This document shows positions 13,853 to 21,475 of a DNA stretch of 64,000 bases, in pieces. Each line of letters begins with the position of its first letter. Within the stretch, counting starts at the first letter, position 1. Under the pieces are notes generated by a model that saw only the letters and a program-made list of their open reading frames with translations, was not told the origin of the DNA and did not search any database. This DNA is from Gemmatimonadota bacterium (GTDB lineage Bacteria; Gemmatimonadota; Gemmatimonadetes; Gemmatimonadales; GWC2-71-9): contig JBDHKN010000001.1 in NCBI GenBank assembly GCA_039586365.1, forward strand, positions 92,964-156,963, given 5' to 3'. The translations under genes were made by a program, and so were the position numbers.

Positions 13853-15049
13853 ATGGAGCAGACCTACTTTCGTAAGGGCTTTGGCCTGAGGGGAGAGATT
13901 GCTGGCTCCCTCTCCCATGACTATCACAGCGCGCTGGTCGACAGCATCCGCAATAGTGGCTATGCATTGACCGTCGGTGGATTGACGATTCGACTGGCCA
14001 AAGAGTTCGGATTCTGCTACGGTGTCGACCGGGCGGTAGAGTACGCATACGAGACGAGAACCAAGTTCCCGTCTAAAAGCATCTTCTTGATCGGCGAGAT
14101 CATACACAATCCGCACGTCAACAAACGTCTTGAGGCCATGGGGATTACGATCCTGCAGCCACAGGCGAATGGGCAGTTTGACTACTCTCCAGTTGCGCGC
14201 GACGATGTCGTGATCATCCCGGCGTTTGGCGTGCCACTCAGTGACTTCGAGTATCTACACAAGCTGGGTTGCCCTTTGGTCGATACGACCTGTGGCTCTG
14301 TCCTGAACGTGTGGAAGCGAGTGGAGCGATACGCGAAGGACGGTTTCACGGCCCTCGTGCACGGAAAGGAGTTTCACGAAGAGACAAAGGCCACGACTAG
14401 TCAGGTTGCGAAGTATTCGGATGGCAAGTACATCGTCGTGCGAGATATGAAGGAGACAGAAGTAGTCTGCAGCTTCATTGAGGGAAGTGGTGATGCTACT
14501 GAACTGGAGAGGCGCTTCCGTGGCAAGGTGTCAGACGGTTTCTGTTTCGATCGAGACCTAGTGAAGGTAGGGATCGCGAATCAGACAACAATGCTAGCGG
14601 CGGAATCGCTCGCGATCGCGGAGCGTGTGGGCCAGGCTCTTGGCAAGAAGTACGGTGCCGACATGCTTGATGAACACTTTCGGTCATTTGATACGATCTG
14701 CTCGGCAACGCAGGAACGCCAGGATGCAGTGCTCGAGTTGATAGAGGAGCCAATCGATGTGATGATCGTGATTGGTGGTTACAACTCGAGCAACACAAAT
14801 CACCTCGCCAAGATCTGTTCAGCCAAGCGACGCACGTACCATATCGCCGACGCGTCGTGTATCGATCCTGAGAGTGGGGCGATCCGGTACAAGCCCGTGC
14901 TCCAAGTCGACGAAGTACAGCAGGAGAACTGGATCGATGAATCGGTGCGAATGGTGGGAATCACGGCTGGCGCGTCGACCCCGAACAACAAGATTGGGGA
15001 GGCCATCGAGCGAGTGTTACGCACGAAGGGCTTAGTAATCCCGATCTAG
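13853..15049 (+). CDS. ispH: 4-hydroxy-3-methylbut-2-enyl diphosphate reductase
   Basis: FGFCYGVDRA, IIHNP, DTTC, DTICSATQERQ, SSNT and GASTP motifs. Confidence 0.96.
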   Translation: MEQTYFRKGFGLRGEIAGSLSHDYHSALVDSIRNSGYALTVGGLTIRLAKEFGFCYGVDRAVEYAYETRTKFPSKSIFLIGEIIHNPHVNKRLEAMGITILQPQANGQFDYSPVARDDVVIIPAFGVPLSDFEYLHKLGCPLVDTTCGSVLNVWKRVERYAKDGFTALVHGKEFHEETKATTSQVAKYSDGKYIVVRDMKETEVVCSFIEGSGDATELERRFRGKVSDGFCFDRDLVKVGIANQTTMLAAESLAIAERVGQALGKKYGADMLDEHFRSFDTICSATQERQDAVLELIEEPIDVMIVIGGYNSSNTNHLAKICSAKRRTYHIADASCIDPESGAIRYKPVLQVDEVQQENWIDESVRMVGITAGASTPNNKIGEAIERVLRTKGLVIPI

Positions 15050-18000
15050 CCCCAGTCCCTAGATCCAGGAGCTGAGCGACGAAGGCTTCTGAGGAACGAG
15101 TAAGGGGAGGGTGTTGTGGACGTGTCTGGAGTGGTTAGAGGTGCCAAGCGCGGATGTCGTAGTCGGAGAGGCCGCACCTCCTCCGCTATCACGTTCACCG
15201 TGCCATCGTCCTTCGCCAGTCTTCCTACAATCCATATGAACGGTTCTTCTCGGATAGTGACACGGCACTGGTCGTAGAGATCCGGGTGGACGATAGCGTT
15301 TATCATACCAGCTTCGTCCTCAAGTAGAATGAATGTGAAACCTTTTGCCGTGCCGGGTCTTTGTCGTGCCACCACGAGACCAGCGACGTGCACTGGGATA
15401 TTGTGTTCGCTATCTGCCAACTGATCACTGCGGACAACTTCAGATGGTAACGCATCGGCTAGGAGGCTGAACGGATGACCGCTCGCAGCAAACCCAAGAA
15501 CCTGGTACTCAGCCAAGAGTCGCTCTTCACTTGGTACATCACCAAATGGCAGATTCTCGTGAGGATGATCCAATGGCAGTTCTAACTGCCGCCTCACACG
15601 GTTCTTGTTAGCTCGATCAGCTTTTGGGGGTAGCCACAATCCCACTTGCCATAGTAGGTCACGTCGAGTGAGTCCAAACGAATCGCAGCCCCCAACCCAC
15701 ACCAGGTTTTCGATGGCATCCCGCAACAACCGGGGTGGGGCGCGACGTACAAAGTCACCGAGGCTGAGGTAGGGGCCATTACGTTCACGTTCTACAACGG
15801 TCGCGTCGGCAACATCGAGCCCCCAGTCGCGTATGAACGAAAAGCCGATGCGTATCGCATCTCCCTCGACTGTGCAATAGACACTGCTACAATTGATGTC
15901 GGGGAGCTTCACCTCTACATCATGGCGCGCCGCGTCTCGACCGAGGGCGTCGAGTGAGTAAAAACCCATTGGCTGATTGTTGAAGAGCGCGGTGTAGTAC
16001 TCGATGGGGTAGTAGTGACGTAGCCAAGCGGACTGATACGCAAGCAGACCGAACGCAGCTGCATGAGACTTGGGAAAACCGAATTCTGAGAAGGCTATTA
16101 CCTGCTCAAAGACTCGTTGCGCAATTGCTTCGCTCACACCTCTTGTGGCGGCACCATCACGGAACTCCTCCCAGAACCCTTCCATCAATTCACGAGAGCG
16201 TCGGCGGCTCATTGCGCGCCGTAGTGCTTCTCCCTGCCCGGCGCTAAACCCTGCCAGGGCTTGGCAAACTTGCAGCACTTGATCCTGATAGATAATCACT
16301 CCCAATGTCTCGGCCAGTGGCTCCTTGAGCAATGGATGATCTAACGGGGGCTCATAAGAAATGTTGCGAGAGCAGGCTGCGCGCTGTGCCTCGCGCCGGC
16401 GCACGAAGGGGTTCACTGCTCCACCGACTATCGGACCAGGGCGTACAATAGCGACTTCTACGCAAAGATCCTCCAGGTTGCGCGGTCGAGTGCGTCGGAT
16501 CATCTGTATCTGCGCGCGACTCTCTATCTGGAAGGTCCCTACTGTGTCGCCAGTGCAAATCTGATCGTATACAGCTTCGTCAGTGAAGTCGATCCGACTC
16601 AGGTCCGGTGGTGTACCCTCACGTTCAGCGATCAATTCAACGGACTCCTCAACCAGAGAGAGCATGCCCAGTGCCAGGAAATCGATCTTGATGAACCGTG
16701 CATCGTCACAGGAGTCCTTGTCCCATTGACACACGACCCGGTCAGGCATGGCAGAGCGTTCCAAGGGGACCAACTCGAGCAAAGGACGACTGGAGATGAT
16801 CATGCCGCCTACATGTTGTGAGATATGCCGTGGCAGGTCCGCGATTTCCGCTGCCAGACGACACAGATCCCGCCAAAGAGGAGCATCCACTCGGCCTGCA
16901 AAGGCAGGCAACTTCTGCAGCTCGTTGCGCAGTTCGGTTGCTGGGCTGTGTCCGACAAGTCGTGCAATCTGTTCGATTTCTCCGCGGGGTAGGTCGAGAA
17001 CCTTCCCGAGTTCACGCACAGCAGATCGAATGCGGTAAGTGGGAAAAGTACAAACCAAGCCAACGTGTTCGGATCCGTATCGCTGGTAAACACGTCGGAT
17101 CAATTCCTCCCGAATGTCGCGGGGGAAGTCCAAGTCGATGTCGGGTACAGATGCGAGCGATTCGTTGAGAAATCGGCCGAGGAAGAGCCTGTTGCTGATT
17201 GGATCGATGTGCGATAGCCCAAGGAAATAGCAGACTACGGATGAAACCGACGAGCCGCGTCCGCGGCCCGGTAGCAGATTGCCTCTAGCCCGTTGCGATC
17301 CACGTCGCACATCTGCTGCCACCTCGCGTGCCAGCTCCAGTAGATCGTGGTAGACGAGAAAGAAGCCACATAGTCCATGATGTTCGATGAGCTTTAGTTC
17401 CTGCTCCATTCTGCTCTCGGCCTCGGCGCGATGGGGCGACTCGGGAGAAAAGAGCTCTTCGAGTTTGGTTCGTGACAAGTCGGCTAGTGCCCGAGCGGCA
17501 GTCTGCTGGGTGGAACCGCGAAAGTCAGGGAAAGTGTACCCAAGGTCCTTGGTTAGATCGAAAGAAGCACAGCGTTGTGCAATCACGAGGGTATTGGCGA
17601 TAGCGTCAGGTCGGTCATGGAATGCTGCCGCTACAGCTGTAGGTGTCCGAAGATAAAACTGGCAGTTAGGACGGCGGATATCGTGTGAGGTGTCGAGTGT
17701 CGTACGATTACGGATTGCTATCAAGGCATCGTGTAAGCGGTATCGCTCGCGGCGGTGGTAGTGAACGTTACCTGTCGCGACCACGTGCAGTCCGGCAGTG
17801 TCAGCGATATTGGACAAGGTGCGGGTGAGCGTCTGGTCGCCTCGTACAAGATTGCGCTGCAGCTCGACAAAGAAACTGTCTCGTCCAAATACCGCGCGAC
17901 AACGGTCCGCAAGCTGACAAGCAGCCTTGAGACCTTCTTGCTGAAGTACGCGAGGGATAATGCCGTTGCGGCAACCTGATAGTATGATTAGGCCCGCATG

Positions 18001-18348
18001 CCGTTGTTCCAGTGAAGTGAAACTGAGGCGCGGATCACGGCGATCTGCTGTCTCCAAGTGTGCTTCGGTGATAAGGCGACAGAGGTTCGCGTATCCTTGC
18101 GGCGTTTCTGCTAAGAGAGTGATGTGTGAGCCGTCGCGTAGAGTGATTTCAGCGCCAGTGATCGGCTGGATATCCATCTGCTTGGCTGCCTGTGCGAAAA
18201 TCATCGAGCCATACACACCGTTATGGTCTGTGAGTGCGAGGGCGGGATAGCCAAGCGCATGAGCTTCTAGGACGAGGTGCTCGGGAAGCGAGCTGCCATC
18301 TAAGAAGGAGAAGGCAGAATGGGAATGAAGTTCGATGTATTGGCTCAC
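15046..18348 (-). CDS. dnaE2: Error-prone DNA polymerase DnaE2 (ImuC)
   Basis: PHP motif ELHSHSAFSFLDG, GRGS, catalytic PDIDLDF, FGFPKSHAA, RQRPGTAKG OB fold and SRDWG tail; start reassigned to the GTG overlapping the upstream TGA. Confidence 0.93.
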   Translation of the reverse strand: MSQYIELHSHSAFSFLDGSSLPEHLVLEAHALGYPALALTDHNGVYGSMIFAQAAKQMDIQPITGAEITLRDGSHITLLAETPQGYANLCRLITEAHLETADRRDPRLSFTSLEQRHAGLIILSGCRNGIIPRVLQQEGLKAACQLADRCRAVFGRDSFFVELQRNLVRGDQTLTRTLSNIADTAGLHVVATGNVHYHRRERYRLHDALIAIRNRTTLDTSHDIRRPNCQFYLRTPTAVAAAFHDRPDAIANTLVIAQRCASFDLTKDLGYTFPDFRGSTQQTAARALADLSRTKLEELFSPESPHRAEAESRMEQELKLIEHHGLCGFFLVYHDLLELAREVAADVRRGSQRARGNLLPGRGRGSSVSSVVCYFLGLSHIDPISNRLFLGRFLNESLASVPDIDLDFPRDIREELIRRVYQRYGSEHVGLVCTFPTYRIRSAVRELGKVLDLPRGEIEQIARLVGHSPATELRNELQKLPAFAGRVDAPLWRDLCRLAAEIADLPRHISQHVGGMIISSRPLLELVPLERSAMPDRVVCQWDKDSCDDARFIKIDFLALGMLSLVEESVELIAEREGTPPDLSRIDFTDEAVYDQICTGDTVGTFQIESRAQIQMIRRTRPRNLEDLCVEVAIVRPGPIVGGAVNPFVRRREAQRAACSRNISYEPPLDHPLLKEPLAETLGVIIYQDQVLQVCQALAGFSAGQGEALRRAMSRRRSRELMEGFWEEFRDGAATRGVSEAIAQRVFEQVIAFSEFGFPKSHAAAFGLLAYQSAWLRHYYPIEYYTALFNNQPMGFYSLDALGRDAARHDVEVKLPDINCSSVYCTVEGDAIRIGFSFIRDWGLDVADATVVERERNGPYLSLGDFVRRAPPRLLRDAIENLVWVGGCDSFGLTRRDLLWQVGLWLPPKADRANKNRVRRQLELPLDHPHENLPFGDVPSEERLLAEYQVLGFAASGHPFSLLADALPSEVVRSDQLADSEHNIPVHVAGLVVARQRPGTAKGFTFILLEDEAGMINAIVHPDLYDQCRVTIREEPFIWIVGRLAKDDGTVNVIAEEVRPLRLRHPRLAPLTTPDTSTTPSPYSFLRSLRRSAPGSRDWG

Positions 18349-18680
18349 GGCTTTTGTATATACCAGTCGCCAGTCATCAAATCTTCGTATAGAACCACAT
18401 GCATTCCTCCATCCAAAACCACTTCTGCATACCATCGTGAGATCGGTTGCCGCCACCACTCGTCGTCGACTCTCCAAATCTCCAATATGGACTCCACTGC
18501 TCTTCCTACTTCTTGTCTGTATCCTTTCTCTCGCTGTTCCACTGTTCCACTGTTCGGTTGCTGTATGGCGAACACTGCCGTCGGATGTCCCTGACTGTTC
18601 AGTTCGACCTTTGCTGGCTGCGGAAGGTTCAAAGGCCGCAGACGGTCAGCCGGTCCAGGTTTTGGAGGTTTAGGGGTCAT
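18345..18680 (-). CDS. Small ImuB C-terminal-like (DUF6504-like) protein
   Basis: LRPLNLPQP and WRVDDEWW...RWYAEV...LYED...W pattern; lies between imuB and dnaE2 with overlapping start/stop codons. Confidence 0.75.
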   Translation of the reverse strand: MTPKPPKPGPADRLRPLNLPQPAKVELNSQGHPTAVFAIQQPNSGTVEQREKGYRQEVGRAVESILEIWRVDDEWWRQPISRWYAEVVLDGGMHVVLYEDLMTGDWYIQKP

Positions 18681-20097
18681 AATCAATCAACGCATATCGT
18701 CGCTCGGGAAGGCGTGACTGCGGGTGTACTTTGACAACTTGGTAGAGTGAGGAATGTCTGAACCTGTTCTTTATCTCACGAACCGCTGCACGAAGCGCCC
18801 GTCTGCGTCCCGCACGTGCAGAGCTAGCAGCATCGCGCGCAAAGAGCTGCAATTCGTCGGTTCCACGAACGAAGGCTGTGAATTCCACTGCAAGAGTTTC
18901 CACGGCAGTAGTTGGGGGTGCCTGCTCTAAACGCGTTTTGAGCGGTGCGGCTATGTGATTTCGATCGGCAGAAGGACACTTCAGATTGACATGTACCTTC
19001 CACGAAGTGGCGTGTTCTTGCCGCGCGTGCACGCCTACCTGAAGTACGCGCCAGCCGGTACGCTTTGGGTGGCGCAGTGCACGTTCGATTAGCCGGTCCA
19101 GGGCATGCAGGAGCATTGCTCGATCCGTGACCGGTGTGGGAAAATCGATCTCTGCTACTATGGGTTCTAGTGTCTCGTGGCCTACGACTGGGTCAGCTAT
19201 TTCACCACTCGCCAGCAACCAGAGGTGATGGCCCTCTCTCCCGAATTGAGAGATGAGGGCGACAGCAGGCAACCGGACCAAAGCTCCGAGTGTTGTGATG
19301 CCGAGTTGTCGTAACCGTCTACACGTATCCGGGTCGATGGGTAGAACCTCGACCGGCTGTGACGCCAGGAAACCAGCCCGTTCTGTGTCAGGGACAATGG
19401 TTGCCTCTCCTTGCTTAGCTTTGGTTGCGGCCACCCCGGCGACGAACTTCCCCCGGGCCCAACCCAGGCGGATCCCCTCCCAACGCGACCACACAGGACG
19501 GTCAGTGGTGGAAAATGACGGCAAGGAGTGATAAGGGCACCTATTGCCAGCTACCGTCATGTGACCGCCCTTTACCGCCCTTGCTATGGCATTAACCTGC
19601 TCCTGAGGTGACCCGTTTAGCCCCTCGAGACCATCCACCCCGATGAACACCCGTCCCAACTCCGCCGGCTCGATTACAGGGCTCACATCACCGAGTGCCA
19701 AGATCAGGTTGGAAAACTGCTCGTCGTAATAAACGGGATCGGGTTCGCGGAGTTTGATTTGAGGGCAAAGCCCTACTGCTTGGCTCACGGTCATGCCGGG
19801 CCTAATGCCAGCGCGACGGGCTTGGGGTGAGGTCTCCCATATCCGGCGGGCGTCATCGTTGGAAAGAAGAGCTACCGCCTGGCCATACAGTTCCGGCTGG
19901 CGCTGTACCTCACAGCGGATAGCGAACAGGGGGATCCAGAGGCAGACCGCGTGTTCACTGGACAACCCTGCCGTGCCAACCTTGCCACTGTCCCTCCCCA
20001 GGTGGGGGGGGATAGCAGGCGGGAAGGGACGGTAGGTGATGGGTGGTCCCTTGCCGTCTCTTGCCGTCCTCTTACCCACCATTACCGTCTCGTTCAC
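18670..20097 (-). CDS. imuB: Catalytically inactive Y-family polymerase-like protein (ImuB/ImuY)
   Basis: ARRAGIRPGMTVSQA, LRQLGITTLG HhH and SRLPERR motifs; catalytic carboxylates absent (CLWIP, ELGRVF); ELQLF clamp-type motif. Confidence 0.85.
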   Translation of the reverse strand: MNETVMVGKRTARDGKGPPITYRPFPPAIPPHLGRDSGKVGTAGLSSEHAVCLWIPLFAIRCEVQRQPELYGQAVALLSNDDARRIWETSPQARRAGIRPGMTVSQAVGLCPQIKLREPDPVYYDEQFSNLILALGDVSPVIEPAELGRVFIGVDGLEGLNGSPQEQVNAIARAVKGGHMTVAGNRCPYHSLPSFSTTDRPVWSRWEGIRLGWARGKFVAGVAATKAKQGEATIVPDTERAGFLASQPVEVLPIDPDTCRRLRQLGITTLGALVRLPAVALISQFGREGHHLWLLASGEIADPVVGHETLEPIVAEIDFPTPVTDRAMLLHALDRLIERALRHPKRTGWRVLQVGVHARQEHATSWKVHVNLKCPSADRNHIAAPLKTRLEQAPPTTAVETLAVEFTAFVRGTDELQLFARDAASSARAGRRRALRAAVREIKNRFRHSSLYQVVKVHPQSRLPERRYALIDYDP

Positions 20098-21119
20098 AGC
20101 AGGCTCAATTGCATTTTCTGTTTTACCACTCGATGTTCTCTCACCTGCAACGGGTCGTCTGGATCAATCCCATGCTTCCGTGCAATTCGCTGAAACCGGC
20201 GCTGGACTGCAGTGACGTAGCTGGATGGTGCGTCCCAGTTACCTCGGTATGCCACACGGTATCGTGGGATGAGATTCGGGAAATGCTGTGCGATGATTGA
20301 TAAGAAGTGGTCTCGCGCTGCCGGATAGAAGCGCAACACCGAGGGGTGTACGAAAGCAGTATCTGCTGCACGTGCCGCAAGCATGAGAGCATCGATCTGA
20401 AAAACGGAGTCCGTGACGCCTGGTAGGATTGGCGCGGCGTTGATCCCTGCTCTGATACCCGCCTTGTTCAGCTTCTGGAGGGTACGAAGCCTTGCGTGGG
20501 GCATGGATGCGCGGGGCTCGAACAGCTTGATAGTCCGTATGTCCGTACTGATTAGAGAGATATAGACCGTCACGCGGTGTCTGCGTCCCAATTCGCCTAG
20601 TAGGTCGGTGTCGCGGCAGATGAGGGGACTCTTAGTAATGATTCCGATGGCCAGGCCACGGGCATCTAAAAACCTCTCGACGATTGCTCGCGTGATTTGA
20701 AACCGTCGCTCGGCTGGCTGATAGGGATCAGTCGCAGTTCCGATGATGATAGGGTGAGGATCGTCAAGAGTGTTCTTCAAGTGGATCCGGACGAGATCGC
20801 GCTCGAGTGCAGTCAGAACAGCTTGGCGTCGTTTGACGAAGATGTGTCTTTCGAACATCTCCCAATTTCCTGAAGCTCGAAACTGAGCGACCGCTTCTGT
20901 GGAGGCCTTTCCAGCGTAATGTGCGCGTTCCACCGCATACCGGTGTGTAACGCGGGCGTAGCAATAGGTACAGCCGAACTCGCAGCCTATGTAAGGATTG
21001 ATCGACCAAAAGCCCATGCCAGTGCTTGCGGGGGAGTTAACGACCGACTTGACCTCGTGTTCGAGGAAGGTGACACTGCAGTGGCGTTGGTCGTATGCTG
21101 GGCGTCCCCTGTTACCCAC
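20094..21119 (-). CDS. Radical SAM protein, SplB-like (PA0069/Rv2578c type)
   Basis: INPYIGCEFGCTYCYAR CxxxCxxC, GTATDPYQPAE and ITKS motifs; start tentatively the GTG at 21119. Confidence 0.88.
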   Translation of the reverse strand: MGNRGRPAYDQRHCSVTFLEHEVKSVVNSPASTGMGFWSINPYIGCEFGCTYCYARVTHRYAVERAHYAGKASTEAVAQFRASGNWEMFERHIFVKRRQAVLTALERDLVRIHLKNTLDDPHPIIIGTATDPYQPAERRFQITRAIVERFLDARGLAIGIITKSPLICRDTDLLGELGRRHRVTVYISLISTDIRTIKLFEPRASMPHARLRTLQKLNKAGIRAGINAAPILPGVTDSVFQIDALMLAARAADTAFVHPSVLRFYPAARDHFLSIIAQHFPNLIPRYRVAYRGNWDAPSSYVTAVQRRFQRIARKHGIDPDDPLQVREHRVVKQKMQLSLL

Positions 21120-21300
21120 ATTTCCCCCATCCACACGCGGGGCAGACGAAACATCCGGAGGCCGGATACACAGTACTGCCACAGTCCGGACACAGATGTG
21201 CAGGGTTCCAGCCAGGAGGTTGGTCAACCTCTTTGGTGTTGGAGACAGGCGAAGATGGGCTAGGTGACTTCGTTTGTGTGTTCGGGTAAACTTCGGTCAT
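21112..21300 (-). CDS. 62-aa Cys-rich zinc-ribbon protein
   Basis: CPDCG-x7-GCFVCPACGWGKCG; stop overlaps the probable radical SAM start. Confidence 0.65.
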   Translation of the reverse strand: MTEVYPNTQTKSPSPSSPVSNTKEVDQPPGWNPAHLCPDCGSTVYPASGCFVCPACGWGKCG

Positions 21301-21319
21301 ATACCGAATATATACCGAA
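21281..21319. promoter_or_regulatory. Candidate SOS-type repressor operator array TTCGG-N6-TTCGG-N7-CCGAA-N6-CCGAA
   Basis: Half-sites at 21281, 21292, 21304 and 21315; 11-bp direct-repeat spacing and overall dyad symmetry; heads the dnaE2 cassette. Confidence 0.7.
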
Positions 21320-21334
21320 TATACCTTGGCGCAA
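21307..21334 (-). promoter_or_regulatory. Candidate sigma70 promoter TTGCGC-N16-TATATT
   Basis: Read on the minus strand; the -10 ends 6 nt before the ATG at 21300. Confidence 0.5.
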
Positions 21335-21475
21335 GATGCGCCTTATGTGGTTATTTTAAATGAACTTACGCACTGTTGTTGCGTTCATGCTGTTGCCTGA
21401 CGAGATTCCGCCCCCTTGACAGTAAGTGCGTCGGATATCTGGGAAAGCCGTAATAACTCCACCACGATTGAGCCA

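Follow-up and report, generated by a model that had tools for sequence, protein, structure and literature searches.

The window analysed here, a stretch of 64,000 nucleotides, is part of contig C125 of a 132-contig assembly (GC 0.60), a Gemmatimonadales MAG that is 86% complete. Its minus strand carries five tightly packed ORFs: in order of reading, a Zn-ribbon ORF, a radical-SAM gene, an imuB-like gene, a 113-aa ORF and a dnaE2-type gene. Start and stop codons overlap at every junction, and therefore one promoter probably serves all five. The genes, together with the elements predicted in front of the first of them, are as follows.

15046-18348, minus strand: dnaE2-type error-prone polymerase; likely GTG start at 18348 (GTGA overlap), with the open frame extending to 18477
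18345-18686, minus strand: 113-aa ORF with ATG at 18680, overlapping the imuB stop and the dnaE2 start
18670-20097, minus strand: imuB-like Y-family polymerase homologue (IMS 63.9 bits, IMS_C 30.2 bits)
20094-21119, minus strand: radical-SAM gene (PA0069 / Rv2578c-like, 'SplB-type'; PF04055 at 35.2 bits, above cut-off)
21112-21300, minus strand: Zn-ribbon ORF of 62 aa (CPDCG...CPACGWGKCG), the first gene; weak Zn-ribbon Pfam matches only
21281-21296, plus strand: predicted LexA box B, TTCGGGTAAACTTCGG; exact motif match, inverted with respect to the operon
21304-21319, minus strand: predicted LexA box A, TTCGGTATATATTCGG; exact motif match in the orientation of the operon
21307-21312, minus strand: predicted -10 hexamer TATATT, read from the sequence; a TAnnnT lies after or inside the boxes at the lexA and recA genes of relatives
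21329-21334, minus strand: predicted -35 hexamer TTGCGC, read from the sequence, 16 nt upstream of the -10 hexamer

Residues 22-62 of the Zn-ribbon ORF match the last 41 positions of NF006417, the model for B12-dependent ribonucleotide reductase, with an E value of 4.9e-08; the matched region is the Cys-rich C-terminal tail of that enzyme. In 22 of 29 loci the radical-SAM gene is immediately preceded by an ORF of this kind, ending in CPxCGWG(K/R)CG, and one may speculate that the product of this ORF assists the radical-SAM enzyme as a redox or metal partner. The start of the radical-SAM gene is uncertain; a GTG at 21119 would give an overlap of 8 nt with the end of the Zn-ribbon ORF. Its best family models are NF033668 (178 bits) and NF038135 (171 bits), both scoring below their cut-offs.

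The GTG of the imuB-like gene overlaps the radical-SAM stop (GTGA). All DNA polymerase IV models score far below cut-off against its product, which has L-G-R-V-F-I where the DNA polymerase IV with PDB code 6jum (chain A) has W-D-E-A-Y-L, so that G-R replaces the D-E which we take to be the catalytic acidic pair. By sequence, the product is a Y-family homologue without this pair, as expected of an ImuB. The following 113-aa ORF matches no Pfam family up to an E value of 10; its C-terminal part is rich in Trp, and it could be a detached C-terminal or adaptor piece of ImuB. Among 17 models, the dnaE2 product matches NF004225 ('error-prone DNA polymerase') best, with 916.7 bits against a cut-off of 939; its residue 44 matches profile position 3, and it has PHP, pol3 alpha, finger, HHH_6 and OB domains.

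A LexA-regulated mutagenesis cassette of the form imuA-imuB-dnaE2 was reportedly described by Abella in 2004 and by Erill in 2006. The present operon resembles it in having a gene for an apparently dead Y-family protein followed by a probable dnaE2, under a putative LexA-type operator. It differs in that no imuA lies in the cluster, where the Zn-ribbon ORF and the SplB-type radical-SAM gene come first and occupy the place of imuA, and in that the 113-aa ORF is inserted between imuB and dnaE2. The first-pass annotation had called the cluster an imu cassette; it is not a canonical one. Genome-wide, the ImuA model NF033429 matched recA only, below cut-off, in a genome that is 86% complete and with a model that passed its cut-off in none of 14 control genomes. 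In the SOS response, imuB-dnaE2 are known members (PMC3919608), and SplB-type radical-SAM genes are reported to be SOS-regulated in other bacteria (PMC8565304).

The third-position GC content of the operon genes (15046-21119) is 0.55-0.60, compared with 0.66-0.68 in the neighbouring lytB and phoU-like genes, and a crude GC3-based gene caller missed all of the operon genes. The low values may reflect low expression or a foreign origin.

The operon promoter contains four short words. On the plus strand, TTCGG stands at 21281-21285 and 21292-21296 and CCGAA at 21304-21308 and 21315-21319, with gtaaac, tcatata and tatata as the successive spacers between them. On the minus strand the order is TTGCGC (21334-21329), 16 nt, TATATT (21312-21307), cggtat, the ATG of the Zn-ribbon ORF (21300-21298) and then CCGAA-gtttac-CCGAA. 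The two pairs of words with an 11-bp pitch, laid over the -10 hexamer of a TTGCGC-N16-TATATT promoter and the first ATG, are exactly as they had been described before. Box A consists of two copies of the 11-mer TATATTCGGTA; it occupies the promoter spacer on its 3' side and extends over the predicted -10 hexamer. Box B spans the predicted transcript start and codons 2-7 of the Zn-ribbon ORF, and its spacer, GTAAAC, departs from the T-rich spacer of relatives. With the preceding base included, the words read GTTCGG/CTTCGG and ATTCGG/ATTCGG. The intergenic region has a GC content of 0.46 compared with 0.59 for the window. A single DNA sequencing run spans 21100-21314; it differs from the window at two positions, neither of which lies in a box.

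A generic sigma-70 scan does not list TTGCGC-N16-TATATT, because its -35 hexamer agrees with TTGACA at only three of six positions. We call the promoter because the TTGCnn / TAnnnT layout is conserved at lexA. The ATG of the Zn-ribbon ORF follows the predicted -10 hexamer after 6 nt (7-10 nt in relatives), a distance at which the mRNA of the first ORF may be leaderless or nearly so.

Further out, a terminator-like hairpin with a T-rich tail lies at 21368-21384 on the minus strand, ∼35 nt upstream of the -35 hexamer, in the gap that separates the operon from the divergent genes for a Na/Pi-cotransporter and a PhoU-like protein. A metagenome contig (run X2) matches the window at 21281-21320 only, with four changed letters, and diverges on both sides; this 40-nt match is probably the homologous operator of another organism.

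We compared the same promoter in 28 related loci with the radical-SAM gene, leaving out the locus of genome G021. Five have the exact head-to-head pair and six have the pair with one mismatch; eight have the inverted box only, five the forward box only (four of these five belong to family f2) and four have no box, one of the latter having just 50 nt of upstream sequence. An inverted box at the place of box B is exact in 18 of the 28 loci and has one mismatch in one more. Where two units are present the gap between them is 7, 8, 9, 10 or 11 bp, while the spacing inside the units is always 6. Because the inner spacing is fixed and the gap is not, the working unit is a 16-bp direct repeat rather than a rigid dyad. 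The four words had been presented as one symmetric operator with four half-sites; the words are there, but the 'dyad' is two independent boxes, one of which is inverted. The inverted unit falls in codons 2-7 of the Zn-ribbon ORF in this genus and in the 5' leader in family f3, so that the conservation of box B is not a coding constraint. A close imuB follows the radical-SAM gene in eight of 29 loci, those of this genus and three neighbouring genera. Set against the 22 of 29 loci with the Zn-ribbon ORF, this indicates that the operator pair belongs to the Zn-ribbon/radical-SAM module, to which imuB-dnaE2 is attached in this lineage.

The same unit occurs at lexA and recA. The lexA promoter of this genome has two exact TTCGG-N6-TTCGG units in the orientation of the gene (G000:C126:64790-64831), in the layout TTGCGC-[box]-GTATATT-cag-[box], 20 nt before the ATG. 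The recA promoter has one exact unit, in which TATATT straddles the junction between the spacer and the second word. This is the same register as in box A of the operon (the last four spacer bases plus TT), and in relatives it recurs both at recA and before the Zn-ribbon/radical-SAM genes. At the operon and at lexA the boxes overlap core promoter elements, which are themselves predictions. It had been proposed that the regions upstream of lexA, recA, uvrA and ssb be scanned for the motif: lexA and recA have it in exact form, conserved in relatives, and within 300 bp upstream of uvrA (two copies), ssb, recN and a dinB-like gene of this genome no site with up to one mismatch was found.

In the order, each of 30 lexA loci has an exact unit in the 200 bp before the gene, and 28 have two. 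The unit is likewise present in all of 80 further loci with a gene for a close relative of this LexA, twice in 69 of them; these loci come from MAGs whose titles read Gemmatimonadota, Gemmatimonadetes, Gemmatimonadales or Gemmatimonadaceae. Combined, at least one box is present in 110/110 loci and two boxes are present in 97/110; the unit is also found in 18/18 loci from other orders of the class. As a control, boxes were counted throughout the 109 loci of relatives: 205 fall in the 21,770 bp that precede lexA, and the remaining 349,411 bp of these loci have none. In the relatives, the distal unit fills the TTGCnn-TAnnnT spacer and is followed after 8-14 nt by the proximal one; the hexamers found most often immediately in front of the distal box are TTGCCC, TTGTCC, TTGCGC and TTGCGG. 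At recA, an exact box lies within 200 bp in 23 of 29 loci, and four genomes of family f2 without an exact unit (G029, G033, G037 and G039) keep TTCGT-N6-TTCGG, with one mismatch. Over 169 distinct sites, the base before TTC is A in 24%, C in 39%, G in 26% and T in 10% of cases; G precedes 26% of the first repeats and 25% of the second, and the GG that follows TTC is fixed, although by the way in which the sites were selected.

In the window, TTCGG-N6-TTCGG with up to one mismatch has 11 matches compared with 4.28 expected, a number reached by none of 100 shuffles, and boxes A and B are the only exact copies. The whole 5.44-Mb genome has 20 exact copies compared with 14 expected from a first-order Markov model, which is no enrichment, and other spacings (3-10 were scanned) give 11-24 copies. 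Five of the 20 fall in the promoters of lexA, recA and this operon, and about 12 are located inside ORFs and have the look of chance matches; the head-to-head pair is present only once. The significance of the site thus rests on its position and conservation. A genome scan that allowed one mismatch gave 455 matches, too noisy for naming further members of the regulon. We make no claim of an intergenic enrichment across the genome, since the gene callers missed the operon or mislabelled sites; a longest-ORF caller wrongly labelled the sites at lexA and on contig C122 as coding.

The genome has one strong LexA gene (77.5 bits), as well as a weak LexA_DNA_bind match in a 401-aa ORF (22.8 bits, below cut-off). 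The LexA product matches solved LexA repressors over its full length (PDB entry 3k2z, E value 4.9e-36; PDB entry 3jso, E value 3.8e-25). Residues Ala86-Ala87-Gly88, Ser122 and Lys160 are invariant in ten sequences; the protein has the sequence features of a cleavable LexA, namely the Ala-Gly site and the Ser/Lys dyad, together with a winged-helix DNA-binding domain. A second LexA-like gene with ∼30% identity is present in part of families f2, f4 and f8. It was not found in this genome, where there is a single LexA match, and the TTCGG repeat is absent from the upstream regions of all nine of its loci. The unpublished genome G021 is included in the genome tallies and G083 and G121 in that of the second LexA; no sequence-level claim is drawn from them.

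Beside a TTGACC hexamer, several of the f2 loci with the second gene (L211 and L213, of L210-L218) have a palindrome resembling GTAC-N6-GTAC; this hints at a second regulon that uses a separate motif.

In other classes of the phylum the lexA promoter carries TTCGC-N6-TTCGC, exact in 9 of 13 loci, and TTCGG in none of the 13. The four loci without an exact TTCGC unit comprise one with a TTCGT variant, one at a contig end, one at the edge of the fetched sequence and one with no site in 300 nt. The change in the fifth base is matched in the protein: helix 3 of LexA reads ATVHKHL in 12/12 sequences from the other classes (lexA genes L220-L231) and ATVHEHx (where x is Leu, Val or Ile) in 9/9 sequences from this class, including that of the present genome. 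Glu44, the variable residue, aligns without gaps to Glu45 of Escherichia coli LexA (PDB entry 1lea), which PMC3091678 lists as one of five DNA-contacting residues of helix III. A Glu opposite a G:C pair and a Lys opposite a C:G pair would be chemically sensible. The covariation of Glu/Lys with G/C may be a single split between the classes, and would then count as one event and not as 21.

The lexA promoters (L197-L209) of these other classes are arranged in the same way as those of this class, as TTGAC-[unit]-TATAAT-[unit].

We conclude that the two 16-bp units at the operon promoter are very probably LexA operators, that is, SOS boxes, of class Gemmatimonadetes. The two exact boxes in the lexA promoter, a signature of autoregulation, lead us to this reading, and the covariation of the operator's fifth base with a DNA-contacting residue of LexA points to LexA itself as the protein that reads them. 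The first-pass annotation had advanced the repeat as a candidate SOS box, and the exact units at lexA and recA and their retention in relatives support this proposal at the level of sequence. The same facts bear on whether a different damage-responsive regulator, one that also controls lexA and recA, might own the repeat. Binding of LexA to the boxes is a prediction, a second LexA-like protein exists in some families and the 401-aa ORF of this genome has its weak LexA-type match, all of which would leave room for such a regulator; but two boxes in 97 of 110 lexA promoters, and at least one in every promoter, are the classical mark of autoregulation, the fifth base follows LexA, and the paralogue is neither found in this genome nor preceded by the repeat at its own loci elsewhere. 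We therefore regard a regulator other than LexA as unlikely.

The uniqueness of the head-to-head pair in the genome, and its recurrence at this promoter in 11 of the 28 related loci with up to one mismatch, would be in keeping with a single rigid palindrome that is read as a whole by a tetramer or a dimer of dimers. Against this, the gap varies from 7 to 11 bp at an invariant inner spacing of 6, 13 of the 28 loci have one unit only, and lexA has two units in the same orientation and recA has one; we consider this arrangement very unlikely. Least credible of all is that the feature arose by chance or low complexity, with TATATTCGGTA duplicated in tandem within an AT-rich promoter. Box A is indeed two copies of an 11-mer in a region poorer in GC than the window, and ∼14 random copies of the 16-mer are expected per genome, but the feature is kept across three families while its spacers and flanks diverge, the same words stand at lexA and recA, and the 349 kb of control sequence has no copy. 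The boxes are best read as two separate LexA operators.

If so, each TTCGG-N6-TTCGG unit, with its 11-bp pitch, would bind one LexA dimer. On box A the repressor would sit on the promoter spacer and the -10 hexamer; on box B, which lies 7 bp further downstream in inverted orientation, it would cover the transcription start and the first codons. Because the boxes lie on the promoter and the start, bound LexA would be expected to block the binding of RNA polymerase or its escape from the promoter. DNA damage would lead to RecA filaments, and these to the self-cleavage of LexA and its release from the boxes. Release would turn on the operon and produce the Zn-ribbon protein, the radical-SAM repair-type enzyme, the dead ImuB, the 113-aa protein and the mutagenic polymerase DnaE2. 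LexA binding, one dimer per unit, repression, induction by damage and the leaderless start are all inferred here.

Direct-repeat LexA boxes are known from other groups of bacteria. The alphaproteobacterial motif is GTTC-N7-GTTC (PMC8565304, PMC9578287). The box described here is likewise a direct repeat; it shares the 11-bp pitch and the TTC core and is located at the promoters of lexA, recA and a dnaE2 operon; unlike in the alphaproteobacterial box, the conserved word is TTCGG and the GTTC tetranucleotide is not conserved in both repeats. The recognition helix of alphaproteobacterial LexA probably also differs in sequence from that of the present protein. A box of the GTTC-N7-GTTC type is said to have been found in Acidobacterium capsulatum by Mazon et al. 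in 2006. In the Balneolaeota, the LexA box TTACACATATTTTWTACATA is a direct repeat that was defined by comparative genomics and then confirmed by EMSA, and the regulon comprises lexA, recA, translesion polymerases and a radical-SAM protein; the same source cites the LexA of Patescibacteria (Sanchez-Osuna, Barbe and Erill 2017) among the cases of independently evolved direct-repeat recognition (PMC7739468). The Balneolaeota box and the present one share the direct repeat, and the sequences of their half-sites are unrelated. In the openly accessible full-text literature on Gemmatimonadota together with LexA or SOS boxes we found no description of a LexA box from this phylum. The earlier suggestion of a new SOS box is therefore apt for the Gemmatimonadota, as far as the searched literature shows, but not for the kind of box, given the direct-repeat boxes in PMC7739468 and PMC8565304. 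The finding is best described as a well-supported putative LexA operator pair, predicted from sequence, and as a new variant among the direct-repeat LexA boxes.

A broader reading would take TTCGS-N6-TTCGS as a phylum-wide, previously undescribed LexA code of the Gemmatimonadota with a switch of one residue and one base (helix-3 Glu with TTCGG in class Gemmatimonadetes, Lys with TTCGC in the other classes), and the Zn-ribbon/radical-SAM pair as a conserved SOS module that stands in the place of imuA before imuB-dnaE2 in this genus and its neighbours. We judge this combined reading equally liable to prove right or wrong. If the phylum-wide code is true, the conserved inverted box B would show that orientation is irrelevant for repression.

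Unusually for a bacterial regulator, LexA has switched binding motifs many times, and every motif that is added helps in tracing the history of these changes. We know of no explanation, for any LexA of the direct-repeat type, of how a symmetric dimer binds a direct repeat; the covariation of Glu/Lys with G/C offers a direct handle on the recognition code and on how such a dimer reads a head-to-tail repeat. The Gemmatimonadota are abundant in soils and sediments, yet the searched literature has no account of their SOS system. With the box defined, the SOS regulon becomes predictable in any genome of the class. Here it looks small, comprising lexA, recA, the Zn-ribbon/radical-SAM module (alone or together with imuB-dnaE2) and a few small genes peculiar to single lineages.

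Three further exact boxes stand before ORFs in this genome. In front of a genus-specific ORF of 63 aa (L144:2580-2768, minus strand, on G000:C112), which matches no Pfam family, an exact box stands 13 nt upstream of the ATG. Four of the five loci of the genus (the C112 copy and three orthologues) have this box in exact form, and the fifth has it with one mismatch; a paralogue in the same genome (L246, G000:C18:9468-9629) is without a box. The product is a candidate small SOS protein. Another exact box precedes a Lys/Ala-rich ORF of 208 aa, again without a Pfam family (L145:1765-2388, minus strand, on G000:C122). The third lies at G000:C73:6681-6696, and the ATG of the ORF downstream of it follows 2 nt after the box.
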